Shown here piece after piece: positions 5,624-43,395 of a DNA stretch of 64,000 bases. This DNA is from an uncultured Eubacteriales bacterium (GTDB lineage: Bacteria > Bacillota > Clostridia > Oscillospirales > Acutalibacteraceae). The notes under the pieces were generated by a model. It was not told where the DNA came from, did no database searches, and worked only from the letters and a program-made list of their open reading frames with translations. Location of the stretch: NCBI GenBank assembly GCA_949292775.1, contig CASFBL010000017.1:2387-66386 (forward strand). The letters run 5' to 3'. Made by a program: the position numbers and the translations under genes. Within the stretch, counting starts at the first letter, position 1, and the number at the start of each line of letters is the position of its first letter.

Positions 5624-5631
5624 CCCCGGTG

Positions 5632-7509: not shown

Positions 7510-7672
7510 CATGCACGCTTGTGAAATTTCCGTTAATTTCAAATCAACATTTTCGCCGGATACGCTGAAAAAAGGCACGCCGTATTATTTTTGCCCAAAG
7601 ACGCCGAATGATTCCTGCCGTTTTCGGGAATCCTTTTTAAAAGATACTTTTCTTAATGAAGGAAGGCGGCTT

Positions 7673-10600: not shown

Positions 10601-13600
10601 CGCATGACAAGCTATTATGCCGTTGCTTCGCGCCAGGTGCCGAAAAAGCACTGGGGCGCGCTCTCAAGAGTGATGTCGCGTTCCGGCGGCTTTACCGGCG
10701 CGCTTTCGTGGTCGGGCACGATGTTTGAATTTTTCATGCCGTATTTGTTTTTAGAGAGCCGCGAAAGCTCGCTGACCTTTGAGGCGCTGCAATATTGTGT
10801 GCACTGCCAGCGAAAGTTCGCCGCGGCAAACCATATCCCGTTCGGCATTTCCGAAAGCGGCTATTACCGGTTCGATGAACAGCAGAATTATCAATACAAG
10901 GCGCACGGCGTGCCGCTGCTCGCGCTGCGCCAAACAAAGGGAGATGAGCTTGTGGTTGCGCCTTATGCCTCTTTTCTTTGCCTGCCGCTTGCGCAAAAGG
11001 CGGCTTTTAAAAACCTGCGTGCTTTAGAAAAGTTAGGGGCGTCGGGCGAATGCGGATTTTATGAAGCCGTCGATTTTTCAAGCGGCCGCAAAAACGGACA
11101 GGCGTTTTCGCTGGTGCGAAGCTATATGGCGCACCATGTCGGCATGAGCCTTTTGTCGGTAGACAACCTGCTTTCTGACGGGGTAATGCAAAAACGCTTT
11201 CTTCGGGACAGGCAAATGCGCGCTGGGCGATCGCTTTTAGAGGAAAAAGTGCCGTCTGCGCCGCTGCTCATGCGCAAAAAAACACCGACAGACACTGCCA
11301 AACGCCAGGAACTGCCGCGCCCGGCAAGCACCCAAAGCCGTGCGCCCTCTCCCCTTTCGCCGCGCGCTGCCGTTTACGGCGACGGTGCGTGGACAAGTAT
11401 TTTAACAGACGGCGGCGCAGGGTACAGTCTGTTTTGCGGTCTGCCGGTCACGCGGGTCAGCCGCGATCTGCTGCACGCGCCGCAAGGTGTGTTCGGGGTG
11501 TTTCAGGCGGCCGAAAACACTCTGCCGCTCGTTTCTGTTTTAGACCGACAGAACCGCGCGCAGTATCAAACGGTATTCACCGAAAAATCCGCCGTGTTTT
11601 CCGCACAAAATGAAGTCCTGCGCGCCAAAACGGTGGTGACTGTGCACGGCAGGGGCCCGGTCGAGCTGCGCCGGTTTACCATTTGCAACCGCACCAATGC
11701 GCCCGTGCGCGGAAATCTGGTGCTGTATTTTGAGCCGTCTCTGCAAGACCCGCTTGCCGAAAAGGCGCATTTGGCGTTTCGAAAGCTTTTGGTTACCGCT
11801 TCACGCACAAAAGAGGGCGACGCGCTGTTTACCCGCCGTCCGCGGCAAGGAGAGCCGGCGCTTTTCTGCGGCTGCGGAATTTTAGAAGAGCTCCCCTATG
11901 CCTGCGCGTTGACCAGAGACAAAGTGCTCACGCGCACAAAAGGCGTGTTTTCGCTTTTAGAGGCAAATATTACCGGCAATGATGCTGCGGGCATAGCCGA
12001 TGTCTGCTTTTCGGCAAGCATACCGCTTGAAATACCGGCGCGCGGCGAGAAAAGCGTGACGCTGTTTCTTTGCTGCGGGCACACAAAAGAGGAAATTTCT
12101 TCGGTTATAGGCAATTTGCGCACGGCGGGCGTCCCGTCCGCACGAAAAGCATCGCGTGCCGCGTTTTGTGAGGATACCCCGAAAAGCGCCGCGGCAAACG
12201 CTGTTTTGCCCGCTCTGTTTTTTAATGCCGAGCGAATCCCATTGCAGATGACGGCCATGCGCGAGAACCGGCAGGGCGTCGAGGCGCTTTGGCGGCTGGG
12301 CATTTCCGGCGATCGCCCGATTTTAACGGTGACGCTGACCGCGCTTTCGGATTTTTCGGCGGCAAAGCCGTTTGTGCAGGCGTTTGCCCGCCTGCGGGCG
12401 CTTTCGGCGGCGTGTGATTTGGTGCTTTGCTTCTCGGGCTCTTTCGAGCAGAGAGAGGCGCTTTTGAAGCAGACGGAGGAACTGCTCGCCGAGGAAAGCT
12501 GCCCGGGACTGCGCTCCCAAGCAGGAAATGTATATGTATTACGCCGCGAAGAAATGTCGCTGCCCGACCAAACCACCCTTTTGGCGCTGTCCGATGCGGT
12601 TGTGCCGTTGGGCAGCCCCGACGAGGGCGCGGCAGAGAAAAAGCCGTTTTGTGAAGCCGCCGTTTCAGACTGCGCAGGCTCCAATCAGCCGAACTGTTTT
12701 TCAGAGCAAGGCGCGGAAATCCATCAAAAGCCGGTTTTGCCGTGGTGTTATGTGCTTGCAAATCCGACCTTCGGCACGCTGCTCGGCGACAGCACGCTCG
12801 GCACGACCTTTGCGCAAAATGCACGCTTAAATAAGCTGACATTGTTTTCCAACGACCCCATGCTCGACAATTTGGGCGAACGGTTGTTTTTGCGCGTAAA
12901 CGGCAAAATTTTTGATATATTGCGTGCGTCCTGTGCCCGGTTTGGGGACAATCGCGCGGAATACACCGCATCCGCCGCCGGAATCACATTGACGGTGACC
13001 GTCACGGTTCCGCGCCGCGGCATGCAGAAGCAGGTGGAAGTGATGCTTGAAAACCAAAGCGGCGTCCAAAAACAGGCCGAGGTTTGTTATTACACGCGCC
13101 CGGTGCTCGGCGAAGATGACCGGCGTGCAAAAAATCTGCAATCCCGGTTTTACGGCGGTGCGCTCGAAGTGCACAGCCCACTGTCACCGGCGTTTCCCGG
13201 CACGATGCGTCTTTCAGCACAGGGAGAAAATATCTTTTGGACGGTGCACGACGATGATTTTGCCGCGGGCGTTTGGGACAGCGGCGGCGATTTACCGCAG
13301 GCATTCGGCTGTGCCGCTGTGGGCAGAAAGCTGTATTTACCGCCGCGCCGCAAAGAACGCGTTCAATTTATTTTGGGCTTTTCGCGTTTTGCAGCGGGCG
13401 CGGAGCGCCTTGCCAAAGAAGATTTGCAACCGATGCAGCTCGGCGACCGGATTCGTGTAAAGACAAACGACAAGGCTTTTAACACGCTGTTTAATGCATT
13501 TTTACCCAATCAAATCGAAATGGGCCGCCTTTTTGCCCGCACCGGGTTTTATCAGTCCGGCGGCGCATTCGGCTTCCGTGACCAATTACAGGACGCCGCT

Positions 13601-14896
13601 GCGCTTTTGCCGGTGCGCCCGAAGCTTTGCCGGTTACAAATTTATCGCTGCTGCGCCGCGCAATTTGCGGAAGGCGATGTGCTCCACTGGTGGCACCCCG
13701 TCGCAAAAGCGGGCGAAGGCAAACACGGTGTGCGCACGCGCTACGGCGACGATCTGCTCTGGCTGCCGCTGACGGTGGCGCGCTATGTGCTTGCGACCGG
13801 CGACCGGGAAATACTCAAGAAGCAAATTGCCTTTTTAGATGCGGCGCCGCTGGAAGCGCAGGAAGAAGAGCGTTATTTTGCCGCGCACGCAGGAAAAGAA
13901 AAAGCGAGCGTTTTGGAGCACGCGAAACGGGCTTTGCAAAAAGGGTTGCAGTTTGGTGAACACGGGCTTCTCAAAATGGGCGCGGGCGACTGGAACGACA
14001 GCTTCAACAAAGTCGGCATCAAGGGAAAAGGCGAGAGCGTTTGGCTTTCGCAGTTTGCCGTGGTGGTGCTCGATGCATTTTCGGCGCTTTTGGAAGAGCT
14101 CGGCGAGGAAGCCGAAGCGTACCGCGCAACGGCACAGCAGCTTCGCGAAGCCATAGACCAATTTGCTTGGGACGGCGACCATTATTTGCGCGCCTTTTTT
14201 GACGACGGGCGAAAAATGGGGGCGAACGCCTGCGAAGAATGCAGAATCGACAGCCTGACGCAAAGCTTTGCCGTTTTTGCGAAAATGTCTGACAAAATGC
14301 GTGTGCAGGCGGCGCTGCATAGTGCATATGCGGCGCTGGTGGACGCTGAAAATGGGCTTGTCCGCCTGTTTTGGCCGCCTTTTTCGGGCAAAGACCGCTC
14401 GGCGGGCTATGTGGCAAGCTATCCGCCCGGCGTGCGGGAAAACGGCGGGCAATACACCCACGCCGCGGTGTGGTTCTGCCGCGCGCTGTTTGAAAGCGGC
14501 AATATGCAGGCGGGTGAGCGGGTCTTATCCCTTTTAAATCCGCTTAACAAAGACGAAGCGGTCTATAAAACCGAGCCTTATTATTTTGCAGGCGATGTGT
14601 ACGCGGCGGAAGAAGCTCCCGGACGCGGCGGCTGGAGCCTTTACTCAGGCTCGGCGGGGCAGTTTTATGCCTTTGTGACCGAGGTGCTTTTAGGGATTCG
14701 TCTAAAGGACGGGAACCTGTATTTTTGCCCGAACCCGCCGAAAAGCTGGGGTGCGTTTCAGTTCGCCTTGTACCTTGGCGGCGCAAAGATAGATGTTGCC
14801 GTTGCACAGAACGCTGCCGGGCGTGTGGAAATCGACGGCAAAACAGCTGCGTTTCTACGCCCGGACGGGAAAAATCATATTGTAAAAATATTTTGA
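7673..14896 (+). CDS. Cyclic beta-1,2-glucan synthase-like giant protein (GT84-type transferase plus GH94 phosphorylase domains)
   Basis: Start MKKAPV at 7673 follows GGAAGG. There are several TM stretches. Transferase-type motifs include VLDSDTEL and ERWVRGDAQN. The C-terminal GH94-like motifs are GFRDQLQD, HWWHP, YGDDLLWLP and GAGDWNDS. Confidence 0.8.
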   Translation: MKKAPVRKLKRLLEKQLHALASAKKEEAANNSALFENRGYLLAEGQAVASELRHIPALNAGQNGLPSVFCTLYLMTENGKLPAFEQLVKTLREIGCRGVETDYCALFLRAALLCRAAESLPQDAETLQNAVSSLRDLPDYPFERVYAEVCDAEKILLQDAGYRDSDTASRGVYRRLLAEKAAACGQTEAQTAQVLFRTAEAENTTVFRLLQPENAQTHRLAVLGALCGVPLLLSAAVGFLCRSAFTGIFLWLPLQAALSGLLARLLLRGVPPVPVLRCNIDAMRDSNAKTVIAVSALLPKPEALGALQAHLEDIYLCAGAKDIRVCLLADYKAAKSAETPADEVDALRTAEMIDALNLKYPNAFCLLLRGRSYSKTQREYIGRDRKRGAIEDLLAALRGNFSAFSLSCGKTDDFSEFSYLFVLDSDTELTIDCLQALLAAAQHPENKAVIDPVRRVVTRGYGAFVPRAELSLESAYKTRFSRALSGVGGVSGYDVQIGEFWQDLTGCGLFTGKGLFDIDTAKQVLTGAFVPETVLSHDIPEGELLRSAFVSDAQITDGVPATARAYFARMERWVRGDAQNLVFLGKRLPASAAKIENPLSGLSKWKLLKTLANALVPICSLLLLLVGAFLPFPASFAAVFGAVVACTAQDLAAFCRVVLRGGFLRAAERRFGKAMPAAEKQLCDAALHLMLLPVTAWTSCTALCRGIFRRFVTKRHMLDWVTAADSDRLLSKRVSFARDLFPVLCAALLFFAPFTAARAVALFFLAAPVFCCVSEKPYREKHIAPPDARTAEVLTADAAAMWRYYTRFCNARNHFLPPDNVQETPVLRVAHRTSPTNIGMMLCSCLAARDLSFISSETLCDMLERTLESIEKLPRWHGNLLNWYDTQTLEALSPRYVSTVDSGNFLCCLTALSEGLSEYAPQCPRLWGVRARVEVLRKSCDLSALYDRRRNLFYIGYDLEKGCFSDAHYDLLMSEARMTSYYAVASRQVPKKHWGALSRVMSRSGGFTGALSWSGTMFEFFMPYLFLESRESSLTFEALQYCVHCQRKFAAANHIPFGISESGYYRFDEQQNYQYKAHGVPLLALRQTKGDELVVAPYASFLCLPLAQKAAFKNLRALEKLGASGECGFYEAVDFSSGRKNGQAFSLVRSYMAHHVGMSLLSVDNLLSDGVMQKRFLRDRQMRAGRSLLEEKVPSAPLLMRKKTPTDTAKRQELPRPASTQSRAPSPLSPRAAVYGDGAWTSILTDGGAGYSLFCGLPVTRVSRDLLHAPQGVFGVFQAAENTLPLVSVLDRQNRAQYQTVFTEKSAVFSAQNEVLRAKTVVTVHGRGPVELRRFTICNRTNAPVRGNLVLYFEPSLQDPLAEKAHLAFRKLLVTASRTKEGDALFTRRPRQGEPALFCGCGILEELPYACALTRDKVLTRTKGVFSLLEANITGNDAAGIADVCFSASIPLEIPARGEKSVTLFLCCGHTKEEISSVIGNLRTAGVPSARKASRAAFCEDTPKSAAANAVLPALFFNAERIPLQMTAMRENRQGVEALWRLGISGDRPILTVTLTALSDFSAAKPFVQAFARLRALSAACDLVLCFSGSFEQREALLKQTEELLAEESCPGLRSQAGNVYVLRREEMSLPDQTTLLALSDAVVPLGSPDEGAAEKKPFCEAAVSDCAGSNQPNCFSEQGAEIHQKPVLPWCYVLANPTFGTLLGDSTLGTTFAQNARLNKLTLFSNDPMLDNLGERLFLRVNGKIFDILRASCARFGDNRAEYTASAAGITLTVTVTVPRRGMQKQVEVMLENQSGVQKQAEVCYYTRPVLGEDDRRAKNLQSRFYGGALEVHSPLSPAFPGTMRLSAQGENIFWTVHDDDFAAGVWDSGGDLPQAFGCAAVGRKLYLPPRRKERVQFILGFSRFAAGAERLAKEDLQPMQLGDRIRVKTNDKAFNTLFNAFLPNQIEMGRLFARTGFYQSGGAFGFRDQLQDAAALLPVRPKLCRLQIYRCCAAQFAEGDVLHWWHPVAKAGEGKHGVRTRYGDDLLWLPLTVARYVLATGDREILKKQIAFLDAAPLEAQEEERYFAAHAGKEKASVLEHAKRALQKGLQFGEHGLLKMGAGDWNDSFNKVGIKGKGESVWLSQFAVVVLDAFSALLEELGEEAEAYRATAQQLREAIDQFAWDGDHYLRAFFDDGRKMGANACEECRIDSLTQSFAVFAKMSDKMRVQAALHSAYAALVDAENGLVRLFWPPFSGKDRSAGYVASYPPGVRENGGQYTHAAVWFCRALFESGNMQAGERVLSLLNPLNKDEAVYKTEPYYFAGDVYAAEEAPGRGGWSLYSGSAGQFYAFVTEVLLGIRLKDGNLYFCPNPPKSWGAFQFALYLGGAKIDVAVAQNAAGRVEIDGKTAAFLRPDGKNHIVKIF

Positions 14897-29280: not shown

Positions 29281-30287
29281 GTAGGGGGCGGCGTTCCACC
29301 GCCGCCCTTAGTGCCGCCGGGCACACCGAATTCGAGCAGATAGTGTGTGCAGGAGGAAATTTTTTGCCCGGTATCGGCTTTGCGCGTGTCACGGTGACGG
29401 CGCACAGTGCCGCCGGGCACACCGAATCGCGTAGAGAGCAGTTGTAAGGCTTTATTTCAAAAGCCCGGTATCGACTTTCATCAAATTGTCATTTGTAGGG
29501 GCGGGACTCCGTGCCCGCCCGTATGGTTACAGCGATGCTGCTGCCGGGTTAAGAAAATCAAGGTAAAATTCCACTACCTGCGCGCATTTGCCGTGCGGCA
29601 GCCCGCACCACGATTCGCTGCGGTCGGCACCGCCGCAATTTTCTCTCCCTCCGTCTTTTGCCTGCGGCAAAATCCACCTCCCTCGTCAGAGGGAGGAAAA
29701 GAAACCACAAGCTTGCAAACAGTCACCGTTTTTTCGCGCCTAAAAACCGTGCCCCCTCTGACGAGGGGGCTGTCGCACCTCGTGCGACTGGGGGAGAGAA
29801 TACAAGACACGCGGACAGGGGCAAGGGCTGTCCGTCAAAGTTTACACAAAGCCGGTGAAAAGATAAATAAACGCGGGCGGGCACGGAGTCCCGCCCCTAC
29901 AACGCATACAATAACACATCAGCAAAGCCGCTTCCGGGTTGCGAAAGAAAAAGCAAAATCAGACCGCCTACGCGAATTCGTTGCAAGCCGGCGCGTGCCG
30001 GGGAACCCCCGGCGAGGGTTCCCCACGACAAAACAGTCCACCGGACTGTTTTGTCTCCCCTCCTGCGCTTTATAAGGCAAGAAATTTCGCTCCGTGCGCG
30101 GAGCGACCAAAGGCTTTACCTTTGGATTCCACCGCCTTTGAAAAGGCGGGCGAAACTTTATATGCGGGCAGATGGTTTGCGAAAAACGATACATTTCCGC
30201 CCGACCGAAGGGCTCATCTATCTGTAGGGGCGGGGTTTCATCCCCGCCCGCAAGGTTACAGCAAAGCTGCTTCCGGGTTAAGAAAGT
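29281..30287. repeat. About 1 kb gene-free array of modular repeats (M1, M2, M3, M4 and type C) in both orientations
   Basis: M3 hairpins lie at 29281-29310, 29494-29524, 29871-29903 (inverted) and 30225-30255. M1 lies at 29313-29345, 29409-29440 and 29965-29990 (inverted). M2 lies at 29365-29395 and 29463-29480. M4 (GGTTACAGC..CCGGGTTAAGAAA) lies at 29524-29555 and 30255-30287. Confidence 0.7.
29641..29802. repeat. Composite intergenic repeat (type C), inverted orientation
   Basis: TTCTCTCCCTCCG...CCTCCCTCGTCAGAGGGAGG...CCCCCTCTGACGAGGGGG...CTGGGGGAGAGAA is the reverse complement of the 2783-2997 element. Confidence 0.7.
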
Positions 30288-30348
30288 TTTGCCTTGTACA
30301 TAGTCCCTACACGCGTTCGCCGTGCGCCGGCGCGCACCAAAGTTTTTG

Positions 30349-32495: not shown

Positions 32496-33308
32496 ATGGC
32501 GAAAACGACCAAAAAACATAAAAGAGGTGCGCGCCGCTGGGCGTTCCCTCTGGGGCTTCTGATTGCCGTTTTGGCGGTCGTCGGTGCGGTCACGGTTGTT
32601 GTGGCGGGCGTCCGCGTGACCAAAGACGCAATCGACAGCAGCCGGAATTTTGACGAATACAACACCCTGCTCACGCCCGTCGTGATGAACGACCCCGACG
32701 AGTTCGATGACATTACCAAGGCAAATCCGTCGCAGCTTATTGACATTTCGATTTGGTCGATTCTTAAAAGCAACCTTTCCCCCGACCAGTACGAATACGG
32801 CGAGACCGGCATGATTATTCCCGAAGCCGATGTCACTGCCGAATTCCAAAAGCTGTTCGGCACAGAAGTGCAGCCCACCCACGGGACGGTGTCGGGCTAC
32901 GGCTATGAATTCACCTATGACGCGACCAAACAGACCTATTCCATCCCGCTGACCGGCGTTGTGCCGACCTACACCCCCAAGGTTGTAGAGGTGGATAAAA
33001 GCGGCAGCACCATTGTGCTGACCGTCGGCTACCTCGGCGGCGACCAGTGGGCGCAGGACGCAGAGGGCAATATGGTTGCGCCTGAGCCCGATAAATATAT
33101 GAAAGTGACCCTGCGCGAGCGCGACGGGGCATATTATATCAGTGCTTTGCAGTCTACGCTTCCGCCGGAGACCGCGACAACAGCCGCGACCAGCGCGCCG
33201 GAAGAGACTGAAACCCAAACCGAGACCCAAACCGCGGCAGCGGATACAACAGCGGCCGCACAAACAGCGACAGCCGCAGCGGATACGACTGCTGCAGCTG
33301 CGCAATAA
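32496..33308 (+). CDS. Hypothetical membrane-anchored protein with a Thr/Ala-rich repetitive tail
   Basis: Basic N-terminus, one TM helix and a ~190 aa extracytoplasmic domain. The tail is ETETQTETQTAAADTTAAAQTATAAADTTAAAAQ. It lies 2 nt after the proA stop. Confidence 0.6.
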   Translation: MAKTTKKHKRGARRWAFPLGLLIAVLAVVGAVTVVVAGVRVTKDAIDSSRNFDEYNTLLTPVVMNDPDEFDDITKANPSQLIDISIWSILKSNLSPDQYEYGETGMIIPEADVTAEFQKLFGTEVQPTHGTVSGYGYEFTYDATKQTYSIPLTGVVPTYTPKVVEVDKSGSTIVLTVGYLGGDQWAQDAEGNMVAPEPDKYMKVTLRERDGAYYISALQSTLPPETATTAATSAPEETETQTETQTAAADTTAAAQTATAAADTTAAAAQ

Positions 33309-33322
33309 AGGAGAAAACAACA

Positions 33323-33979
33323 ATGGTTCTTATTTCCCCGTCGATTCTTTCCGCCGATTACGGCAATTTGGAAAGGGAGCTCAAACGCCTGACCGCCGCA
33401 GGGGCGGACATGGTGCATATCGATGTGATGGACGGTCACTTTGTGCCGAACATTACACTCGGCGCGCCGGTCGTAAAATGCATCCGCAAAGCGACCAGCC
33501 TGCCGTTTGATGTGCATTTGATGATTGACGACCCGATGAAGTATGTGCCCGATTTCGTCAAAGCCGGTGCTGACCGCATTACCTTCCATGTCGAATGCGG
33601 CAGCGACACCGAAAAGACGATTGATGAGATTTTAGACGCCGGTGTTGAGGCGGGTCTTGCCGTGAAACCCGGCACCCCGGTCGAAACCGTGTTCCCTTAT
33701 CTCGACAAGCTTTCCATGGTGCTTGTGATGACGGTGGAACCGGGCTTCGGCGGGCAGAGCTTTATGGCGGAAACCATGCCGAAAATCGAGCTGCTTCGCC
33801 AAAAATTGCAGGAACTCGGCAAAGAGATGGATATTCAGGTAGACGGCGGCATCAACGCCGAAACGATTGGTGTTGCCGCGCGTGCGGGCGCGAATGTGTT
33901 TGTTTCGGGCAACGCGCTGTTTTCCGCCGAGGACATGCGTGCGCGCATTGCAGAATTCAAGGCGCTTGCCGAAGTCTAA
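33323..33979 (+). CDS. rpe: Ribulose-phosphate 3-epimerase
   Basis: SILSAD, HIDVMDGHFVPN, TVEPGFGGQ and VDGGIN. Confidence 0.95.
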   Translation: MVLISPSILSADYGNLERELKRLTAAGADMVHIDVMDGHFVPNITLGAPVVKCIRKATSLPFDVHLMIDDPMKYVPDFVKAGADRITFHVECGSDTEKTIDEILDAGVEAGLAVKPGTPVETVFPYLDKLSMVLVMTVEPGFGGQSFMAETMPKIELLRQKLQELGKEMDIQVDGGINAETIGVAARAGANVFVSGNALFSAEDMRARIAEFKALAEV

Positions 33980-34502
33980 CGGGCGCGGCGTGCTCTTTTA
34001 AATAGGCCAGCGACTGGGGCGTTACGCGGCAAAGCGTGCCGTATTCCGACAGGCGCATGGCGGCGCGGCGCGTTTCCAGAACGCTCGCAAAACGAAAAAC
34101 ACCGGCAAAGCGGTCGCCGTCTTTGTAAAATGTATAGGCGGACGGCGAAAAAAGCCCGGCTTTCAGCTGTAAAAGCAGGTCGAGAAAATCGTCTGTGCTC
34201 TGTGTATGCAGCAAAAGCGTTCGGTTTTCCGCTTTGACCAGCAGCCGTTTTTCGTGCGCTGTGGAGGAAAGCAAAACAATGCAGCCTCCCCCAGAACCGG
34301 GCAGGACATCGACCCGCAGCATTCTTGCGGCAGGGTTCGTCCAGCCAAGCGTAGTTTTGGCACGCGTCAAAATATCGTGCAGGAGATGAACGGTTTGTTC
34401 GTTCTCCATGCGCATTTCTTCAAAAGTGACCCGGTAACCGTGCAGATCCTCCTGCGTCAGCTCGGCGATCAGGCGGCTCTCCGAGGTTTTATGTAGATGC
34501 AT
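33957..34502 (-). CDS. MecA-like adaptor protein (short form)
   Basis: The start MHLHKTS follows GGGAGGG. The N-terminal LIAELTQEDLHGYRVTFEEM and C-terminal LSEYGTL...YLKEHAAPV resemble the MecA N- and C-terminal signatures. Assigned from memory of the family only. Confidence 0.55.
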   Translation of the reverse strand: MHLHKTSESRLIAELTQEDLHGYRVTFEEMRMENEQTVHLLHDILTRAKTTLGWTNPAARMLRVDVLPGSGGGCIVLLSSTAHEKRLLVKAENRTLLLHTQSTDDFLDLLLQLKAGLFSPSAYTFYKDGDRFAGVFRFASVLETRRAAMRLSEYGTLCRVTPQSLAYLKEHAAPVRLRQAP

Positions 34503-34577
34503 AATACCCTCCCAGATAAACAAATTACGGTTACTATTATCATATTGCGCGGACGAGCTTCTCGCAATGCATAATTT

Positions 34578-35753
34578 ATGGAAAACGAGGTGGATTTTTT
34601 GCGCTCAGAAGAACTTCCGGTACAAAATGGGCAGGTATTTACGCCGGAACTGAAAGCCGAAATACGGCCTACGCGAAAATACATGCTGGATATATTGGCG
34701 ATGCTGTTTGCACCGGTCGTTATGGCGTGGTACTATTACGGCAGCCGTGCGCTTTGGCTGATGGTCATTTCTGTGCTGACAGCCGTTTTTTGCGAACATG
34801 TCGGCGCGCACCTGATTAAATCTCTGCCGACGCTTCGGGACCTTTCTGCGGTGGTGACGGGGCTTCTCGTTGCACTGTGCCTGCCGGTTTCTGTGCCGGT
34901 CTGGGTCGTAATCCTGGCAAGCGCCTTTGCGATTTTGGCTGCCAAACTGCCGTTCGGCAATGCACGAAGCGTGCTGTTTTCCCCGGCGGCGGCCGGACTT
35001 GCGTTTGTAACGATTTGCTTTCCGGATTATGTGTTTGCTTATCCGGCAATTCCCGGCAGCGGCGAGCAGGTCGGCGTTTTTGGGACTTCCACTTTCACCG
35101 CGGGCATGTCTCTTTCGCAAATGCTTACGCAAAGCACCTCGGTGGGCGGCGGCGCGGCAAGCTATTTGGATATTTTAATCGGCAATTTCCCCGGGGCAAT
35201 GGGCACCGGGTGCGTTATTGCGCTTATCGGCGCACTGCTCTATATGGCGGTGCGGCGCAGAAAGATGTTTGGCGTGGCAGCGGCATTCCTTGTGACCTGC
35301 GCGGTTTATGCCTTTTTGTTCCCCCGCATTATGACCGGCAGACTGGAGTCGGTTTTCATGGAGCTTTCCGGCGGTATGTTGTTATTTGCCGGTGTGCTTA
35401 TTTTGCCGTATGAGGGGCTTTTGCCCAAACGGTTTTACGGCAGGCTGGTCTATGGCGCGGCGGCGGGCCTTATCTGCATGCTGTTTCGCACCTTCGGCAC
35501 TTTTGAAGAGGGTGCGGTGTTTGCCGTTTTAATTGCGAACGCGCTTTCCGGCGCGTGCGACAAAATGCCGGTCTCCCGCTGGGAAAAGAAAGCGCGGGCA
35601 AAGCAAAAGCGCCTTGCACTGGAAGAAGCCCAGCAAAAAGAACAGGAGCAGAAGCGTGCCCAGTGGCTGGAAGAAGACGCTTCCGCAGAAGCGGCACCGG
35701 CCGAAACAGCTGTGACCGATGAAAAAGAACAGGGAGGTGCCGAGCATGTCTGA
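34578..35753 (+). CDS. RnfD/NqrB-family membrane protein, divergent, with a charged C-terminal tail
   Basis: Polytopic. DLSAVVTGLLVALCLP and the overall hydrophobic pattern match RnfD. I could not find an SGAT-type flavinylation motif. Confidence 0.75.
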   Translation: MENEVDFLRSEELPVQNGQVFTPELKAEIRPTRKYMLDILAMLFAPVVMAWYYYGSRALWLMVISVLTAVFCEHVGAHLIKSLPTLRDLSAVVTGLLVALCLPVSVPVWVVILASAFAILAAKLPFGNARSVLFSPAAAGLAFVTICFPDYVFAYPAIPGSGEQVGVFGTSTFTAGMSLSQMLTQSTSVGGGAASYLDILIGNFPGAMGTGCVIALIGALLYMAVRRRKMFGVAAAFLVTCAVYAFLFPRIMTGRLESVFMELSGGMLLFAGVLILPYEGLLPKRFYGRLVYGAAAGLICMLFRTFGTFEEGAVFAVLIANALSGACDKMPVSRWEKKARAKQKRLALEEAQQKEQEQKRAQWLEEDASAEAAPAETAVTDEKEQGGAEHV

Positions 35754-36831
35754 GCGAAACCGAAAGATTTTGGACGGCATCCGCAACAGCGCGCTGATTA
35801 AAAACCCGGTTCTGTTTGAAGCCATTGGTATTGCGCCGATTGCAGCGATTGCGGTGTCCTTAAAGACGGCAATCATTTTGGCTGTGGCATCGTGTCTGGA
35901 ACTTGTGGTTATTGAGCTGTTTACCTGCCTGGCGCTTAAAAAGGTCAAAAGCTATTTCCGAATGCCGGTTTATGCCGCCCTGGGTGTGCTTATCAATTTG
36001 CCGGTGTTCATGTTCTTCTCAAAATTTACACCGAATGAAACGCTCAATGTCGGCATTTTCCTGCCGCTTTTGGCGGTCAATTCGCTGATTGCGCTGCACT
36101 GTGAGCGATTCGCGGTCAAAAATAATTTTAAAGATACCTTTATCGATGCCATTTCCGCAGCGGGCGGTTATGCGTTTGTTTTGCTGTTGGTTGGCACGGC
36201 GCGTGAAATCTTAGGCAGCGGCACGATTTATTCCGTGGATTTGCACCTGCCGGTGCAGTTAAGCGGTATGCTTATGCCGTTCGGCGGGCTTTTGCTGGTT
36301 GGTTTCCTTGCGGCGGCGGTCAAGGCGCTGATTGCAAAACGCTACCCGGAGGAAAAGCCTGAGGACGCGTTCCGCATGCAGGAAATCTCCGAATCGCATG
36401 TCGGTTCGTTCCGCGCGCTGGCGCAGACCGATTTTAACCCCTATGACGATGCGGATGATGAGGAGAAGCCCCGTGCGAAGCGGGAAAAAGTGAAAAAAGA
36501 AAAGCCCGAAAAAGAAAAGCACGGCAAAGAAAAGGCCAAAAAAGAGAAAATCAAAAAAGAGAAACCGAAGAAAAAAGAAAAGCCGCTGAAAAAAGCGGTG
36601 CATTTGGATACAAAATCGGAAAAAGCGCCGGAAAACACACCGGTGCAGGCGCCCGAGCGCCCCGCTCGCCGCGCACGGCACGCAGAGGACGACTACCTGC
36701 TGGAATTTGACGAAATGCTTTCTGAACTGGATTCCTTCAAGAAAAAGCAGGAGCAGTCCAACACAGAAGAGGTGCCCGCTGAAACACCGGCGTCTTCTGA
36801 AGAAACCAAGCAGGACGGTGAAGAGAAATGA
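35746..36831 (+). CDS. RnfE/NqrD-family membrane protein, divergent, with a ~170 aa Lys/Glu-rich tail
   Basis: NPVLFEAIGIAPIAA aligns to the RnfE region N..LVQLLGLCPLLAV, and LPLLAVNSLIALHCERFA aligns to IPLIVTNCIVVGRAEAFA. The start follows GGAGG and overlaps the upstream stop. Confidence 0.75.
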   Translation: MSERNRKILDGIRNSALIKNPVLFEAIGIAPIAAIAVSLKTAIILAVASCLELVVIELFTCLALKKVKSYFRMPVYAALGVLINLPVFMFFSKFTPNETLNVGIFLPLLAVNSLIALHCERFAVKNNFKDTFIDAISAAGGYAFVLLLVGTAREILGSGTIYSVDLHLPVQLSGMLMPFGGLLLVGFLAAAVKALIAKRYPEEKPEDAFRMQEISESHVGSFRALAQTDFNPYDDADDEEKPRAKREKVKKEKPEKEKHGKEKAKKEKIKKEKPKKKEKPLKKAVHLDTKSEKAPENTPVQAPERPARRARHAEDDYLLEFDEMLSELDSFKKKQEQSNTEEVPAETPASSEETKQDGEEK

Positions 36832-37421
36832 GTATACTCGGCAGTTTATTTTCCACAGCACTGTTTGCCTGCCTGTTTCAAAACTTGATTTTTACAGGGG
36901 CATACGGTGCGGATGAAGCCATCCGCATGGCGGCAAAACCCCGGCAGCTTTTCCCGCTGAGCGCGTTTATTGTCTATCTTTCCACCGTGGTGTCGCTCAT
37001 TTGCGTTTTGCTCGAGCAAAACGCGCGCGTGCGCGCACTCAACACCTATGTTCATGCCGCAATTTTTGTCGGTGTGCTCATTGTGGTGTATCTTATCACC
37101 CTGCTGTTTGTCAAGGTGGTTTTGAAGGTGAAAAAACGCACCGTCCGGCGTTTGGGCGTTGCGGCGTTCAACACGCTGGTGCTCGCGGTGCCGTTTATCA
37201 ACTATCGAGCGGCGTTCGGTATTTATGAAGCTATCGGCGCGGGGCTGGGCGCGGGCATTGCGTTCGTTGTAGCGGTGCTGCTCATCAATTTCGGGCTGCG
37301 CGCCATTGACAAAAACAAGCAGATTCCAGAGGCGTTTAAAGGCACGCCCGCCATTTTTATTTATGTCGCCATTCTCTCCCTTGCCTTTACAGGCATTGTG
37401 GGCAGAGGCATCAATCTGTAA
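36828..37421 (+). CDS. RnfA/NqrE-family membrane protein, divergent
   Basis: The C-terminal AFKGTPAIFIYVAILSLAFTGIVG matches RnfA [24 protein letters not shown]. The N-terminal FQNLIFTGAYG sits where NNFVLVKFLGLCPF is expected. It overlaps the upstream gene by 4 nt (ATGA). Confidence 0.75.
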   Translation: MSILGSLFSTALFACLFQNLIFTGAYGADEAIRMAAKPRQLFPLSAFIVYLSTVVSLICVLLEQNARVRALNTYVHAAIFVGVLIVVYLITLLFVKVVLKVKKRTVRRLGVAAFNTLVLAVPFINYRAAFGIYEAIGAGLGAGIAFVVAVLLINFGLRAIDKNKQIPEAFKGTPAIFIYVAILSLAFTGIVGRGINL

Positions 37422-37448
37422 AGCTAAAGCCGTCAGAAGGAAAAAGCC

Positions 37449-38630
37449 ATGTTTAAAAACGACCGGGACTTAAAGCCCCGCAAAAAAAGCTATTATGCAT
37501 TTTCCAAAAATTATCCGGGCCGCCGCACCGGCACAAAATATGCCATCGGCGAAAGCCGGGCACGGCATAAACGGGAGCGCAACAAAAACATTTTGTTCGG
37601 CGTTTCGCTTTGCTTTCTGTTTGTCGCGGTGTTTTGTGTGGTGTTTATCGCGCTCTCTTTGTCCAAAAAACCTTTGGAGCAGGGCGGAGAGGCCGTGGCG
37701 GTCGAAAACGGGAATTACCATGCTGTTTATATGACGAGCAATGAGCTTTCGGGCGGAATCGCGTTTGACTTGTTCCGGCAAAAGTTGTCTGAAAGCGGCG
37801 CCAACGCAGTTTTGGTCGATTTCAAGACCGATGACGGCGAACTGGTCTTTCCAAGCGCGGTGCAGGCGGCGCAGGATATCGGCGCTTGCACACATACGGT
37901 GGAAAATGCACCGGACACCGTGCGCCAGCTTCAGGAAAAAGGATATGCAGTTATTTTCCGGGTCTCTTGTTTTGAGGATGCGCTCGCGGCCGCCTATCTG
38001 CCCGGCGCAGCCGTGACTGAAGCGGACGGAAAAACCGTTTGGCTTGATGACAGTGCACAGAATAACGGCAGCGGCTGGCTCAATCCATATTCAGATACGG
38101 CCAAGCTGTATCTGCTGCAAATCGTAGAGGATGCAGTTGCGTTCGGCGCGGATATGGTGCTTCTGGACGGGGTCAGCTTCCCCGCCGGACGCTATTTGGA
38201 GCGCGCCGTTTTCCCGGGCGAAGCGGAAAGTACTTTCAGCCGCAACGCCGTGCTGCACGATTTTATTGAGCAGGCAAAGCAGGTGACCGGCGATGTGCCG
38301 CTGGCGGTTTCCATGTCGCTTCCCGCGGCGCTTTCGGGCGATCAGACCTTATACAGCGGTGGGATTTTTGACAGCGCGGCAGATTACGCTGTGGTGGATT
38401 TTCGGCGCAGCACGCTTATAGACGGTGTTGCTTTAGGCGAGACGGCTTACAGCGCAGATATGTCGCAAGAGGCGTTTGTAAACGCCGCCTGCTCGGCGCT
38501 TTCGCTTCGGCTTGATGAAAATTATCGCACAAAAGGGCTTTTACCTGTCACGGACACGGCGGAAGATGTATCTTTGCTGCAAAATGCGGGCATAGATAGA
38601 TATATACAAATTTCAGAAGAACCCGCTTGA
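37449..38630 (+). CDS. Membrane-anchored putative glycoside-hydrolase-like TIM-barrel protein (DUF4015-like)
   Basis: Basic N-terminus and one TM helix. YHAVYMTSNEL...ANAVLVDFKTDDGELVFPS and WLNPYSD...GADMVLLDGVSFP resemble the putative glycosyl hydrolase domain family. Assigned from memory. Confidence 0.55.
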   Translation: MFKNDRDLKPRKKSYYAFSKNYPGRRTGTKYAIGESRARHKRERNKNILFGVSLCFLFVAVFCVVFIALSLSKKPLEQGGEAVAVENGNYHAVYMTSNELSGGIAFDLFRQKLSESGANAVLVDFKTDDGELVFPSAVQAAQDIGACTHTVENAPDTVRQLQEKGYAVIFRVSCFEDALAAAYLPGAAVTEADGKTVWLDDSAQNNGSGWLNPYSDTAKLYLLQIVEDAVAFGADMVLLDGVSFPAGRYLERAVFPGEAESTFSRNAVLHDFIEQAKQVTGDVPLAVSMSLPAALSGDQTLYSGGIFDSAADYAVVDFRRSTLIDGVALGETAYSADMSQEAFVNAACSALSLRLDENYRTKGLLPVTDTAEDVSLLQNAGIDRYIQISEEPA

Positions 38631-38838: not shown

Positions 38839-41470
38839 ATGAAACAGTATCTGCAATCCGCAGAGGAGGTCTTCAAAGCGGTGCAAAGCTCTCCGCAGGG
38901 CCTTTCTACGGCGGAAGCGGAAAAAAGGCTTTTGGAAAACGGCAAAAACAAGCTGGAAGAGGGTAAGAAAAAATCCCTTGCCCGCCGGTTGTTTGAACAG
39001 TTCACCGACCCCATGATTCTGATTTTGATCGCGGCAGCAATCATTTCTGCCGTGACTGCTGTCATGGAAAAAGAATTCCCCGCCGATGTCATCATCATTT
39101 TGGTGGTGGTTGTCATCAACGCTGTGCTCGGCGTCTATCAGGAAAGCAAAGCCGAAAAAGCGATTGAGGCCTTGCAGGAAATGGCGGCGGCAACTTCCAA
39201 AGTGCTTCGTGACGGCGATGTCGTCGAGATTCACAGTGAAGACCTGACCGTCGGCGATGTGATTTTGCTCGAAGCAGGCGATGCTGTGCCGGCAGACGCG
39301 CGTATCATTGAAAGCGCAAGCCTGAAAATTGAAGAGGCGGCGCTCACGGGCGAATCCGTCCCCGTCAACAAGTTTATCGACGCCATTTCGTTGGGCGACA
39401 AAAAGGATGTGCCCCTGGGCGACCGCAAAAACATGATGTATATGGGTTCGTCGGTCGTTTACGGCCGTGGGCGCGCGGTGGTCACGGGCGTGGGCATGAA
39501 CACCGAAATGGGCAAAATCGCCGGGGCGCTCGCCGCGGCAGCAGCTTTCTAAAATTTTGAGCTTCCTGGTGCTCGGCATTTGTGTGTTTATGTTCATTTT
39601 CGGCATCGTCCGGCAGTATATCACCGGCGGAACGCCCGATTTTAATTTCCTGCTTGACACCTTTATGCTCGCCGTTTCGCTGGCGGTTGCCGCCATTCCC
39701 GAAGGGCTTGCAGCTGTTGTGACGGTGGTGCTTTCCATCGGCGTGACCAACATGTCTAAGAAAAATGCGATTATCCGCCGCCTGACTGCGGTGGAAACGC
39801 TCGGCTGTGCGCAGATTATCTGCTCAGATAAGACCGGCACGCTCACACAAAATAAAATGACCGTTGTGGAGCATTACGGCGATAATGAAATGCTGCTCGC
39901 CAAAGGCATGGCGCTTTGCACCGATGTCAATATTGACCACAGCGGCAATTTGGTCGGCGAGCCTACGGAGGCGGCGTTGGTTGCCTATGCATTAAGCTTG
40001 GGGCTGAATAAGAACGACATGCTCAAAGCCGCGCCCCGCGTGGCGGAAGCGCCGTTTGACTCCATGCGCAAAATGATGACAACGGTGCACAAAACGGCTG
40101 ACGGCATTTTGCAGTTCACCAAAGGCGCGCCGGATGAAATTTTGAAAAACTGCACCCATATTTTGAAAAACGGTGAACCGGTCGAAATCACGCAGGCGGA
40201 CCGCGACGCCATTATGGCGCAGAACAAAGCCTATGCTGACCGCGCGCTGCGCGTGCTGGCCTGCAGCTTCCGCACGCTGGACGAAGTTCCGGCGGACCAA
40301 AGCCCCGAAGCGCTTGAGCACGACCTTGTCTTTATCGGTCTTACCGGCATGATTGACCCGGTGCGTCCCGAAGTGAAGGCGGCAATCGAGGAATGCCGCA
40401 CCTCCGGTATTCGTCCGATCATGATTACCGGCGACCACAAAGACACGGCAGTGGCAATCGCCATGGAGCTTGGCATTATCACCAGCCCCTCTGAAGCCAT
40501 CACCGGTGCGGAGCTCGATGAAATCTCTGACGAGGAATTTAAAGACGCTGTTGAAAAGTATTCGGTTTATGCGCGTGTGCAGCCCGAGCACAAGGTCCGC
40601 ATTGTCAACGCTTGGCGTGCGCGCGGCAAGATTACCGCAATGACCGGCGACGGCGTCAACGACGCACCCTCCATTAAGAGCGCTGACATCGGCGTGGGCA
40701 TGGGCATCACGGGTACCGATGTTACCAAAAATGTGGCGGATATGGTGCTTGCCGACGACAACTTTGCCACAATCGTAACCGCGGTGGAAGAAGGCCGCCG
40801 CATTTACGACAACATCCGCAAATCGATTCAGTTCCTGCTCGCTTCCAACTTAAGCGAAGTCATGTCGATTTTCTTCGCAAACATTTTGGGCTTCACCATT
40901 TTGAAGCCGGTGCACCTGTTGTGGATTAACCTTGTGACGGACAGCTTCCCGGCACTTGCGCTGAGCATGGAAAAAGGCGAGAAAAACATTATGAAACGCC
41001 CGCCCAGAAAGTCAACGGACGGTATTTTCGCCGGCGGTGTCGGCGGGGACATTGCTTATCAGGGCTTCTTAGTCACGCTTTTGACCCTTGCGGCATATTT
41101 CATAGGTCACTTTATTGAGTCCGGCCGTTGGGAAATCGTTGACAGCCCGGACGGCATGACCATGGCATTCCTGACTATGTCCATGTGCGAGATTTTCCAC
41201 TCGCTCAATATGCGCTCGCAGCGCGGTTCTATCATTAAAATGGCATTCCAGGGCAGCCACAATAAATATTTGGCTTTGTCCACGATTGCGTCGTTTGTGA
41301 CGACCACCGCGGTCATCTATGTTCCGGGGCTTAACGATGCGTTCGGCTTCGAGCATATCGACCTTCAGGAATATGTAATCGCGCTGGCACTCGCGTTTGC
41401 GATTATCCCGCTTGTGGAAATCATCAAAGCGTTTGAGCGGCTGTATGCGAAGCGCAAAAAGAAAAAATAA
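38839..41470 (+). pseudogene. P2-type cation-transporting P-type ATPase (Ca2+/Mn2+ type) split by a frameshift near 39526-39552
   Basis: ORF1 (38839-39552) covers the N-terminus, M1-M2 and the A domain. ORF2 (39557-41470) carries DKTGTLT, TGDHKDTA, MTGDGVNDAPS and M5-M10. Frame +1 reads QQLSKILSFLVLG across the stop. The usual TPLQ segment before M3 is missing. Confidence 0.6.
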
Positions 41471-42829: not shown

Positions 42830-42962
42830 TCCTCGCCCGGCAACGGTTCGGATAAAATCTCCTGCGAGTTGCAAATTTGCACTTTTGAACTTTCTTTTCC
42901 TCCCTCTGACGAGGGAGGGGGCTTTTGCCGCAGGCAAAAGCCGGAGGGAGAGAAAAGTTGCC
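42830..42962. repeat. M2 module fused to the right half of a type C repeat
   Basis: CTCGCCCGGCAACGGTTCGG ... TTTTCCTCCCTCTGACGAGGGAGGGGGCTTTTGCCGCAGGCAAAAGCCGGAGGGAGAGAAAAG. Confidence 0.65.
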
Positions 42963-43028: not shown

Positions 43029-43102
43029 TGGAGGCGACACCCAGATTTGAACTGGGGATCAGGGTTTTGCAGACCCATGCCTTACCACTTGGCTATGTCG
43101 CC
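43029..43102 (-). tRNA. tRNA-Cys (GCA), CCA encoded
   Basis: GGCGACATAGCCAAGTGGTAAGGCATGGGTCTGCAAAACCCTGATCCCCAGTTCAAATCTGGGTGTCGCCTCCA folds as a cloverleaf with anticodon loop CTGCAAA. Confidence 0.93.
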
Positions 43103-43119
43103 GGATTTGTGTCACTGGT

Positions 43120-43157
43120 GTAAAAAAGGACGCTTAAAAAGGTTTTAAGCGTCCTTT
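43120..43157 (-). terminator. Rho-independent-type terminator between tRNA-Gly and tRNA-Cys
   Basis: A 14-bp stem (AAGGACGCTTAAAA with TTTTAAGCGTCCTT) and a 3-nt loop. On the minus strand it is followed by TTTTTTA. Confidence 0.55.
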
Positions 43158-43158
43158 G

Positions 43159-43234
43159 TGGAGCGGATGACGAGGCTCGAACTCGCTACCTCCACCTTGG
43201 CAAGGTGGCGCTCTACCGGATGAGCTACATCCGC
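43159..43234 (-). tRNA. tRNA-Gly (GCC), CCA encoded
   Basis: GCGGATGTAGCTCATCCGGTAGAGCGCCACCTTGCCAAGGTGGAGGTAGCGAGTTCGAGCCTCGTCATCCGCTCCA. All four arms pair. Confidence 0.95.
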
Positions 43235-43241
43235 ATAAAAA

Positions 43242-43317
<76 letters not shown>

Positions 43318-43322
43318 AAATG

Positions 43323-43395
43323 TGGCGACCCGGAACGGGGAACCTGTGACCCTCTGCTTGTAAGGCAGATGCTCTCCCAGCTGAGCTATGCTCCC
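43323..43395 (-). tRNA. tRNA-Val (UAC)-like sequence with an aberrant 3' third (possible pseudo-tRNA)
   Basis: GGGAGCATAGCTCAGCTGGGAGAGCATCTGCCTTACAAGCAGAGGGTC gives a normal acceptor 5' strand, D arm and anticodon arm. The following ACAGGTTCCCCGTTCCGGGTCGCCA forms neither a T stem nor a complement to GGGAGCA. Confidence 0.45.

Follow-up and report, generated by a model that had tools for sequence, protein, structure and literature searches.

A reduced Rnf-type D-E-A membrane core encoded with a DUF4015 protein in gut Clostridia

What might the membrane core of a redox-driven ion pump do once nearly all of its cofactor ligands and three of its partner subunits are gone? The question is posed by four consecutive genes in a stretch of 64,000 nucleotides (the window; coordinates count from its first letter, and features lie on the plus strand unless stated otherwise) of contig CASFBL010000017.1, assembly GCA_949292775.1, from an uncultured Eubacteriales bacterium of the Acutalibacteraceae. 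Three of these genes, here called D', E' and A', are homologues of the genes for RnfD, RnfE and RnfA, and the fourth encodes a membrane protein with a DUF4015 domain. The D'E'A'-DUF4015 module appears to be undescribed; it is a relative of the known Rnf kind that is real, widespread and mis-annotated. For the window, the best reading is a repurposed core without redox function, because homology, the loss of ligands and subunits, selection and the conserved coupling to DUF4015 all favor it, and we regard it as highly probable that D'E'A' is a non-redox derivative of Rnf. In the literature searched, we found no description of a D/E/A module, with or without an RnfC-derived subunit (C'), paired with DUF4015. 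The only related report concerns a two-subunit Nqr/Rnf-like complex, and incomplete clusters are not mentioned in the Rnf/Nqr reviews examined.

Gene layout and cofactor sites of the core

D' (34578-35753, 391 residues) is an RnfD/NqrB-like polytopic membrane subunit matched by Pfam family PF03116 (NQR2_RnfD_RnfE, E 9e-58). E' (35719-36831, 370 residues) and A' (36828-37421, 197 residues) are six-helix subunits resembling RnfE/NqrD and RnfA/NqrE, respectively, and both match PF02508 (Rnf-Nqr, E 1e-28 and 2e-13). The last gene (37449-38630) encodes a single-pass membrane protein of 393 residues matched by PF13200 (E 1.5e-25). We re-assigned the start codons from gene calls of 99%-identical contigs, homologue N-termini and upstream sequence. 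D' probably starts at TTG 34599 (384 residues), where its homologues begin and which has a GAGGTG Shine-Dalgarno sequence 6 nt upstream. E' probably starts at ATG 35746 (361 residues), overlapping the D' stop by 8 nt; in the gene calls of the near-identical (99%) contigs its length is 361-365 residues. The E' stop and the A' start overlap as ATGA, an overlap kept in relatives, and A' is followed after 27 nt on the same strand by the DUF4015 gene. Because both junctions within the core overlap, the remaining gap is 27 nt and no convincing internal terminator was seen between D' and the DUF4015 gene, the four genes read as one translationally coupled operon.

The homology of the three core subunits is clear. 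Searches with phmmer align D' with the RnfD chain 9eri_D over residues 23-330 (9e-25), E' with 9eri_E (7e-16) and 7xk3_D (3e-15), and A' with 7zc6_A over residues 6-192 (5e-8). The AlphaFold2 (AF2) model of D', with a predicted local distance difference test score (pLDDT) of 89, superimposes on the RnfD chains 9eri_D and 7zc6_D with target-normalised template modelling scores (TM-scores) of 0.82-0.85; after RnfD/NqrB, the next-best folds are urea transporters. D' is thus predicted to keep the RnfD fold. An earlier note on this DNA had described three clear, overlapping or abutting RnfD, RnfE and RnfA homologues, and the Pfam matches, the alignments to solved chains and the D' model bear this out. 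The best NCBIfam matches are likewise rnfD (TIGR01946), rnfE/rsxE (TIGR01948) and rnfA (TIGR01943), but all three proteins miss the trusted cut-offs (131.8 bits vs 207 for D', 77.6 vs 213 for E' and 40.5 vs 229 for A').

The iron-sulfur site is where the core departs most visibly from Rnf. Ligands were read from alignments to solved Rnf/Nqr chains together with family alignments. In E', the first cysteine is replaced by alanine in GIAP (35827..35838; canonical GMCP), and the second by serine in AVNSLIALHCERF (36073..36111), which has VNS for the canonical VNC. The consensus at the first E' site is G[MV]C[PS], represented by GMCP in RnfE and GVCS in Vibrio cholerae NqrD, and that at the second is [VT]NC. 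In A', YGADEAI (36903..36923) has aspartate, followed by glutamate, where the canonical LGICPFL has its cysteine, and AAFNTLV (37161..37181) has threonine in place of the cysteine of TTNCAVL. Thus, none of the four [2Fe-2S] ligands is left (0/4; Ala, Ser, Asp and Thr), as the earlier note had judged by eye. Relatives show various degrees of this loss. The first E' cysteine is still present in some (L003, L005, L006 and the L058 group). Among the best 150 matches of A', 118 are full-length; 76 of these lack both cysteines, while the second alone remains in 38, the first alone in 3 and the pair in 1, the first being absent in 114 of the 118. The clade of the window has a cysteine of its own in E' (HCE, within ALHCERF), seven residues past the replaced second ligand. 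E' also keeps the equivalents of the Arg67-Glu115 pair of RnfE, with the arginine in YFRMP (35953-35967) and the glutamate in the HCERF-containing AVNSLIALHCERF region. In Acetobacterium woodii RnfE, this ion pair lies at the cytoplasmic entry for Na+ (PMC11889175).

The flavin sites of D' give a less uniform picture. A. woodii RnfD carries covalent flavin mononucleotide (FMN) on Thr156 and holds riboflavin through N123 and D249 (PMC11889175). Both riboflavin ligands are replaced in the window: the equivalent of N123 is serine in FSPAAAG (34977..34997), and that of D249, within the motif TDYASSP, is tyrosine in LPYEGLLP (35403..35426). The position of the FMN-attachment motif, TTATPL in clostridial RnfD, is occupied by TAGMSLS (35097..35117). 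The recognition motif of the flavin transferase ApbE is D-x-x-[ST]-G-A-[ST], in which serine can also be the acceptor (PMC12052999); the heptamer TFTAGMS of the window matches two of its five specified positions, so that the canonical motif is absent, and the complete flavinylation pattern (D....A[ST]) occurs in only 1 of 120 family members. The earlier note, which had found no threonine motif, was right about the motif, but the site itself calls for a qualification. In a MAFFT alignment of 123 sequences, the Thr156 column holds serine in 117 of 120 family members, with glycine at position -2 in 94 of 120, whereas a pairwise HMMER alignment places methionine, not serine, opposite Thr156. Judging by these sequences, flavinylation of D' is unlikely; with a nearly invariant serine aligned with the FMN-threonine, the flavin site has probably, but not certainly, been lost.

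The subunits for electron input and output (RnfB and RnfC) and the periplasmic flavoprotein RnfG are missing from the locus as well. The earlier note had found no RnfC, RnfG or RnfB gene in the operon, and the absence extends to the window as a whole, where we found no RnfC-, RnfG- or RnfB-like or other Rnf-like open reading frame (ORF) and none bearing a CxxCxxCxxxCP motif. The window is otherwise an ordinary chromosomal stretch with mreB, mreC, a penicillin-binding protein gene, hisS, aspS, proBA, rpe and metG. Taken together, these sequence features argue against ferredoxin:NAD+ oxidoreductase activity of D'E'A'.

The four operon genes are under purifying selection. Relative to the orthologous locus L001, which is 80% identical, D' has a ratio of nonsynonymous to synonymous substitution rates (dN/dS) of 0.115, E' of 0.135, A' of 0.047 (the lowest in the operon) and the DUF4015 gene of 0.104. 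Values for flanking housekeeping genes are comparable (0.03-0.08), and the neighboring mecA-like gene gives 0.24. Moreover, the reading frames of the operon genes are intact in every relative examined. Decay, which the earlier note had named as a finding that would undo its proposal, is therefore not what these genes show. As a separate observation, the synonymous divergence (dS) that separates the four operon genes from their L001 counterparts (0.85-1.10) is roughly double that of proA, the gene for a 270-residue protein and rpe (0.37-0.57), which may reflect different codon constraints or a recombination history.

Distribution and graded loss of cofactors

How far does this arrangement extend? 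Searches anchored on D' yielded 183 protein clusters and six genome loci, and a DUF4015-anchored metagenome scan detected at least 535 relatives, from which 80 loci were retained. The latter survey is biased toward loci that have a DUF4015 gene, a bias partly corrected by the look-ups anchored on D' and A'. When 1.84 billion cluster representatives were searched exhaustively with A' by phmmer, 459 matched at E <= 1e-3 and 141 at E <= 1e-10. The neighborhood survey that the earlier note had called for shows that the combination of D, E and A genes with DUF4015 recurs in about 100 loci. In nearly all of those with enough flanking sequence, the order is rpe, mecA (minus strand), D', E', A' and DUF4015. 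The adjacency of the four genes persists down to 25% A' identity among gut Clostridia of the Oscillospirales type, and three distant A' representatives (25-32% identity) again lie in the order rpe - mecA(-) - [C'] - D'-E'-A' - DUF4015. The divergent mecA gene adjoins the cluster in most of the roughly 100 loci, including those at 25-36% identity, and is absent in L022/24/25. From these comparisons, a functional link between mecA and the operon is unproven; their adjacency is very persistent, and the units appear separable by loss.

The carriers include Candidatus Fimenecus / Eubacterium sp. CAG:180, metagenome-assembled genomes labeled Acutalibacteraceae and 'Ruminococcaceae', and the isolate Ligaoa zhengdingensis. 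Two of the clusters are particularly well represented in data from the human gut; they comprise about 1,900 and about 4,000 sequences. In public records, the proteins are labeled 'RnfABCDGE type electron transport complex subunit D' or 'Na+-translocating ferredoxin:NAD+ oxidoreductase', and A' is often hypothetical. Reconstructions of metabolism in abundant gut Oscillospirales that rely on these labels could be misled into inferring energy conservation by Rnf.

Distant relatives show where the reduced core may have come from. An RnfC-derived gene, C', precedes D' in L011 (1788-3152), L097 (6932-8011), L100 (4857-6104) and L101 (1573-2646) of the related loci, and probably in L095. C' has an SLBB domain and two intact CxxCxxCxxxCP motifs, while its FMN/NADH domain is below threshold (22 bits vs 31). 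In these loci, D' keeps the riboflavin-ligand asparagine (FNPAAAG), and the aspartate is kept in four of the five ([TG]DPxTxP), L095 having glutamate instead (SEPSTSP). The asparagine is kept only in relatives that also have C', and C'-less forms replace it; the clade of the window replaces the aspartate too. The second A' cysteine does not follow C' strictly: it is kept in L095, L100 and L101 and in the C'-less L098, but not in L011 and L097 (FNS and FNT). E' is short and lacks the tail in C'-bearing forms, whereas most C'-less forms, L098 excepted, have long D' and E' tails. None of the forms examined has RnfG or RnfB.

Since distant relatives add a C' that keeps two 4Fe-4S motifs, cofactor loss looks stepwise, and the graded retention of ligands and subunits across C'-bearing and C'-less forms places the window at the most reduced state of the family. 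The C'D'E'A'-DUF4015 clusters (for example, that of L. zhengdingensis and those of L011, L097, L100 and L101) occupy the same position next to rpe and the divergent mecA, consist of the same D', E', A' and DUF4015 families and, like the window, have lost most or all cluster cysteines and lack G and B. They differ by C', the riboflavin ligands of D', often the second A' cysteine and the short tail-less E'. The window form therefore looks like a further-reduced derivative of this type, and the C'-bearing form may represent a redox-sensing ancestor. Because the 4Fe-4S motifs of C' and the riboflavin ligands are kept in distant members, some redox or redox-sensing chemistry may persist in the family taken as a whole. 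Thus, the proposal of the earlier note that an Rnf core had been put to another use stands for the window as regards a non-redox core, but may not extend to a loss of cofactors throughout the family.

Against known systems, the module combines familiar parts in an unfamiliar way. D', E' and A' are full-length homologues of the corresponding subunits of Rnf (RnfCDGEAB; structures 9ERI, 7ZC6 and 8AHX), and the order D...E-A is kept. However, Rnf has its six subunits together, whereas only D-, E- and A-like genes are present within these 64 kb and in near relatives. The [2Fe-2S] cysteines, the ApbE motif and the riboflavin ligands of Rnf are all missing here, and the locus adds long tails on D' and E' and a DUF4015 subunit, resembling an ectoenzyme, as the last gene of the operon. 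Na+-NQR shares the same three membrane folds (NqrB, NqrD and NqrE) but keeps the Fe-S centre of NqrD/E, covalent FMN on NqrB and NqrC, riboflavin, NqrF and NqrA; in our locus, it is the membrane core itself that has been stripped. The two-subunit 'Nqr/Rnf-like' complexes (Meheust 2021; Huang et al. 2024, mSystems) comprise an RnfG/NqrC-like flavinylated ectosubunit and a fusion of an RnfD-like domain with an NAD-binding domain (PF00175), and have been proposed to carry electrons outward (PMC11334425). Like our locus, these complexes reuse Rnf/Nqr subunits in part and have an RnfD-like protein without the flavinylated threonine (PMC11334425); unlike them, the locus has no FMN_bind/RnfG-like gene and no PF00175 domain, and has E', A' and a glycosidase-like barrel. 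A precedent for an Rnf-derived subunit that has lost all cofactors is NqrA, a cofactor-less homologue of RnfC (PMC12174285).

The DUF4015 protein, the cytoplasmic tails and what the module may do

The fourth protein was described in the earlier note as a membrane-anchored, extracytoplasmic, TIM-barrel-like product encoded 27 nt downstream of A', and PF13200, the AF2 model and a transmembrane helix agree with that description. Its N-terminal cytoplasmic peptide KPRKKSYYAFSKNYPGRRTGTKYAIGESRARHKRE (37473..37577) contains an 'FSK' box and a juxtamembrane box of the 'SYxE[KR]RR' type, and is followed by a transmembrane anchor (37590..37661) that, by the positive-inside rule and its strongly basic N-terminal flank, would have its N-terminus inside. 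Residues 35-72 are predicted by AF2 to form a helix. In an alignment of 36 sequences, conservation is higher in the N-terminal peptide than in the barrel, and every subgroup has a recognisable version of this peptide; F58 and F62, on the same face of the transmembrane helix, are at least 90% conserved.

The match to PF13200 is well above the gathering cut-off (90.4 bits vs 27), and phmmer aligns the protein with 4s1a (1e-13). The AF2 model (pLDDT 84.5) is a (beta/alpha)8 barrel, for which Foldseek returns only one close structural relative, 4S1A (E 8e-14, TMt 0.88, root-mean-square deviation 1.9 A), the uncharacterised DUF4015 protein Cthe_0052, which has the motifs WLNPY and GxD...FP in common with the window protein. 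Weaker matches are alpha-glycosidase barrels of families GH36, GH31, GH13, GH66, GH114 and GH191. The fold is thus that of 4S1A, no DUF4015 member has a demonstrated activity, and the subfamily at this locus has in addition the cytoplasmic N-terminal peptide and the membrane anchor. Analogy with GH13, GH36 and GH31 tentatively points to D240 at the end of beta-4 as nucleophile and to D317 at the end of beta-6 as acid/base, and the window protein has both. Across 154 homologues, D317 is conserved in 92%, and K126, D177, D200, N212 and D235 in about 99-100%. By this analogy, catalytic competence of the barrel in the window is plausible.

Neighbors in some lineages touch on cell-envelope glycans. 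A translationally coupled polysaccharide deacetylase gene overlaps the DUF4015 stop codon in L098/L099, and genes for an LCP (LytR_cpsA_psr) protein and a GH13 protein lie downstream in L009/L096. Elsewhere, a YkyA domain has been found fused to DUF4015 and also to polysaccharide deacetylases (PMC12700454). Such neighbors and the kinship of the barrel hint at a role in cell-envelope glycan metabolism, and a glycan is the presumed substrate. In L004/L006, the fourth gene has been cut to 121 residues that comprise the N-terminal peptide, the transmembrane helix and a short Ser/Thr-rich stub; the barrel is gone. In the same loci, D' and E' are separated by a lipoprotein gene (L004 8837-9763, L006 8942-9694), whose product has a CAP/SCP domain (PF00188) and a linker rich in Ser/Thr. 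Because this lipoprotein has been inserted where the fourth gene lost its DUF4015 barrel, we suggest that the extracytoplasmic partner of the core is exchangeable.

Both D' and E' extend into Lys/Glu-rich tails, as the earlier note had pointed out; the topology of RnfD and RnfE (PMC11889175) would place them in the cytoplasm. The D' tail (35574..35753) starts with a Lys/Glu/Gln-rich helix of 38 residues (334-371, pLDDT 90-97 in the AF2 model), continues as a variable acidic linker and ends in the peptide QGGAEHV; despite their variable linkers, most D' tails end in GG[AGE]x[DNE]x. The E' tail (36337..36828) consists of a Lys/Glu-rich region of the KEKxKKEKP type, an amphipathic motif and an acidic, glycine-containing C-terminal peptide, and its 165 residues include 31 lysines and 30 glutamates. 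The amphipathic motif DDYLLEFDEMLSELDSFKKK (36688-36747) is kept across relatives; its core, Y..EFD.[IL]L.EL[DE].[YF] (DDYLLEFDEMLSELDSF in the window), is conserved within an otherwise unalignable tail. Most E' tails end in GG[DE]E[KAQ], which in the window is cut to a single glycine (KQDGEEK). A docking role for such tails has a precedent, since the termini of RnfD dock RnfC in the Rnf complex (PMC11889175).

Combining these observations, we tentatively propose, as a reading with a fair number of steps still open to doubt, that the four genes form an operon for an Rnf/Nqr-derived membrane complex that anchors or controls an outward-facing, glycan-acting enzyme and is possibly coupled to a cation. 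That D'E'A' and the DUF4015 protein physically form one complex is, on balance, probable; cation-coupled control of the ectodomain, by comparison, is doubtful. In such a complex, the DUF4015 protein would dock on the D'E'A' core through its cytoplasmic peptide and transmembrane helix, and this helix could take the topological role of the RnfG stalk helix. The E'/A' pair might act as an alternating-access cation module that uses the Arg67-Glu115 equivalents and the acidic residues at the former cluster. Conformational changes or signals passing through the D' and E' tail motifs could then position or switch the outward enzyme on a cell-wall or surface glycan. The persistence of the N-terminal peptide and transmembrane helix after loss of the barrel in L004/L006 favors such coupling. 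More speculatively, and with rather little expectation that it is correct, D'E'A' could be a redox-independent transducer of energy or signals, in which cation flux through E'/A', or partners bound to the tails, drive or gate the enzyme at the RnfG position. If true, this would define a new class of 'stator-like' envelope machine in Gram-positive gut bacteria, of which the C'-bearing relatives would be the redox-sensing version. FtsEX, an ATP-driven polytopic complex, controls extracytoplasmic cell-wall hydrolases, relaying a cytoplasmic or energetic signal to an enzyme outside the membrane. It offers a conceptual analogy only, as there is no kinship in sequence or fold and nothing at the locus binds nucleotide.

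Several observations weigh against the proposed complex. The physical link among the four proteins is drawn from sequence and gene linkage, and within one bacterial order genes can stay syntenic by descent even if they are not functionally coupled. L056 has rpe, mecA and a DUF4015 gene with the N-terminal motif but no adjacent D'E'A', and in L095 C'D'E'A' is followed by an amidohydrolase gene in place of DUF4015. The presumed nucleophile D240 is kept in only 73% of the homologues, so some family members may have an ectodomain without catalytic activity. In Cys-less A' representatives, the residue after the first cysteine position is glutamate in 31 of 79 and arginine in 22 of 79; a fixed carboxylate is therefore not a family-wide feature, and we rejected the idea that carboxylates substitute for the cluster in A', given that Asp-Glu is not found throughout the family and many members have arginine. 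Finally, a C' bearing Fe-S motifs and the nearly invariant serine at the FMN position leave room for redox or flavin chemistry.

This last point is the starting place for the view that the complex is still a redox enzyme or sensor, using non-canonical ligands, non-covalent cofactors (for example, a flavin at the conserved serine or at the HCE cysteine of E') or subunits encoded elsewhere. Serine is nearly invariant at the FMN-threonine position, mostly with glycine at -2, and ApbE accepts serine (PMC12052999); the distant C' and D' proteins keep their 4Fe-4S motifs and riboflavin ligands, and the HCE cysteine of E' is a conserved feature of the clade. However, the form in the window has no C', no cluster cysteine, no riboflavin ligand and a poor match to the flavinylation motif, no module for donating or accepting electrons is encoded within the 64 kb, and without the cluster and RnfG there is no known transmembrane electron path, judging by Rnf/Nqr structures (PMC11889175). 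We therefore consider a redox function of the window form improbable. Improbable to a similar degree is that D'E'A' and the DUF4015 gene are functionally independent and that their adjacency to each other, rpe and mecA is merely inherited synteny in one clostridial order. All carriers do appear to be Oscillospirales-like gut Clostridia, the block proB-proA-x-rpe-mecA-...-ATPase is syntenic in closer relatives, and units have been lost separately (L056, L095, L022-25). Yet the adjacency survives to 25-36% identity while both flanks change, the last two genes are separated by 27 nt on the same strand, and the N-terminal peptide and transmembrane helix of the fourth protein outlive the barrel.

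A somewhat better, although still unlikely, candidate is a redox-independent solute transporter or channel, with D' forming a pore like that of urea/ammonia transporters or E'/A' working as a rocker switch, in the service of the DUF4015 enzyme; it would take up or expel a small molecule connected with that enzyme, such as a cation or a sugar or glycan fragment set free outside the cell. The earlier note had similarly imagined ion or substrate translocation linked to cell-envelope glycan processing, a pairing that we also regard as conjectural. This possibility draws on the closeness of the D' fold to urea transporters after RnfD/NqrB, on the alternating access by which E'/A' homologues work (PMC11889175) and on the extracytoplasmic glycosidase-like partner in the operon. 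It fits less well with the downstream genes, which vary by lineage and include no consistently linked substrate-binding protein or sugar-metabolism gene, with the long tails, whose conserved end motifs suit docking or regulation more than a simple permease, and with the persistence of the core without the barrel in L004/L006. As for the idea that the genes are decaying remnants of an rnf operon, the missing ligands, the three missing subunits and the scores far under the NCBIfam trusted cut-offs are what it could appeal to. We rejected it given the dN/dS values (0.05-0.14) and intact syntenic loci, with frames intact in the window and about 100 relatives; the conserved features that have been gained (tail motifs, the HCE cysteine and the N-terminal peptide) and the high-confidence AF2 models speak against it as well, leaving it practically no credence. 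The non-redox core associated with an outward enzyme thus remains our preferred interpretation of the window.

Whatever the exact function, the graded series that begins with the canonical pump, passes through C'D'E'A' forms with some of the ligands and ends in D'E'A' without cofactors amounts to a natural experiment on the Rnf/Nqr scaffold without redox, and it bears on the open debate about which Rnf/Nqr subunits conduct the ion. The module also links an ancient bioenergetic scaffold to an uncharacterised glycosidase-like DUF4015 protein with cell-wall-related neighbors, offering a handle on both.

Flanking genes and other sequence features

Upstream of D', an element TGCATAAT (34567..34574), read directly from the sequence, is a candidate extended -10 element for the operon; a consensus scan of this region found no full sigma-70 site on the plus strand. 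The divergent neighbor (33957..34523, minus strand) encodes a putative MecA-like ClpC adaptor matched by PF05389 (39.1 bits vs a cut-off of 22.5, E 8.5e-10), with the C-terminal domain covered. In the DUF4015 protein, the N-terminal peptide sequence SYYPFSKNYPSR is similar to FMLYPK of ComK and IILYPR of ComS, two peptides that MecA recognises (PMC8138137). The idea that it is a MecA degron remains no more than a weak lead, the Tyr-Pro not being kept in the L058-type group (FSKHAAGG). Between proA and rpe (32496-33308) lies the gene for a 270-residue membrane-anchored protein with a Thr/Ala-rich C-terminal tail, which matches no Pfam family and is syntenic in closer relatives (L001, L002, L007 and others).

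Downstream of the operon, the segment 38627-38810 begins, right at the DUF4015 stop codon, with a strong, near-consensus promoter-like site (TTGACA-17-TGcTACACT), which is followed by a leader of about 180 nt that ends, just before the start of a P-type cation ATPase gene, in a strong terminator-like hairpin (GCCTTCGGCGGGC...GCCGAAGGC) and a run of T. In its layout, the leader looks like a riboswitch or attenuator; it had no match in Rfam even at E <= 1. The ATPase gene (38839-41470) is split in two parts, 38839-39552 and 39557-41470. At the junction, near 39541, the window is short by 34 nt relative to the 99%-identical L012 and by 37 nt relative to L001, and relatives encode the ATPase as a single protein of about 892 residues. 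Thus, the gene is frameshifted in the window because 34 nt are missing, and this is either a strain-specific pseudogene or an assembly error.

PADLOC found no defence-system match in the window. Copies of an intergenic repeat (about 80-120 nt, sharing 80-90% identity) are interspersed at 2875-2996, 29640-29761 (inverted) and 42876-42956, with possible further copies at 5628-5704 and 30262-30338. The repeat contains internal palindromes (CCTCCCTCTGACGAGGGAGG; TTTTGCCGCAGGCAAAA), resembles a repetitive extragenic palindromic (REP) element or a miniature inverted-repeat transposable element (MITE), and flanks several gene blocks, including a tRNA cluster at 43032-43389. Finally, a giant ORF at 7511-14896 encodes 2461 residues that combine a GT2 glycosyltransferase region with a glucoamylase-like domain and, at the C-terminus, a GH94 supersandwich plus catalytic domain; by its domain content, this architecture is that of a cyclic beta-1,2-glucan synthase-like protein, which is unusual for a gut clostridial genome.

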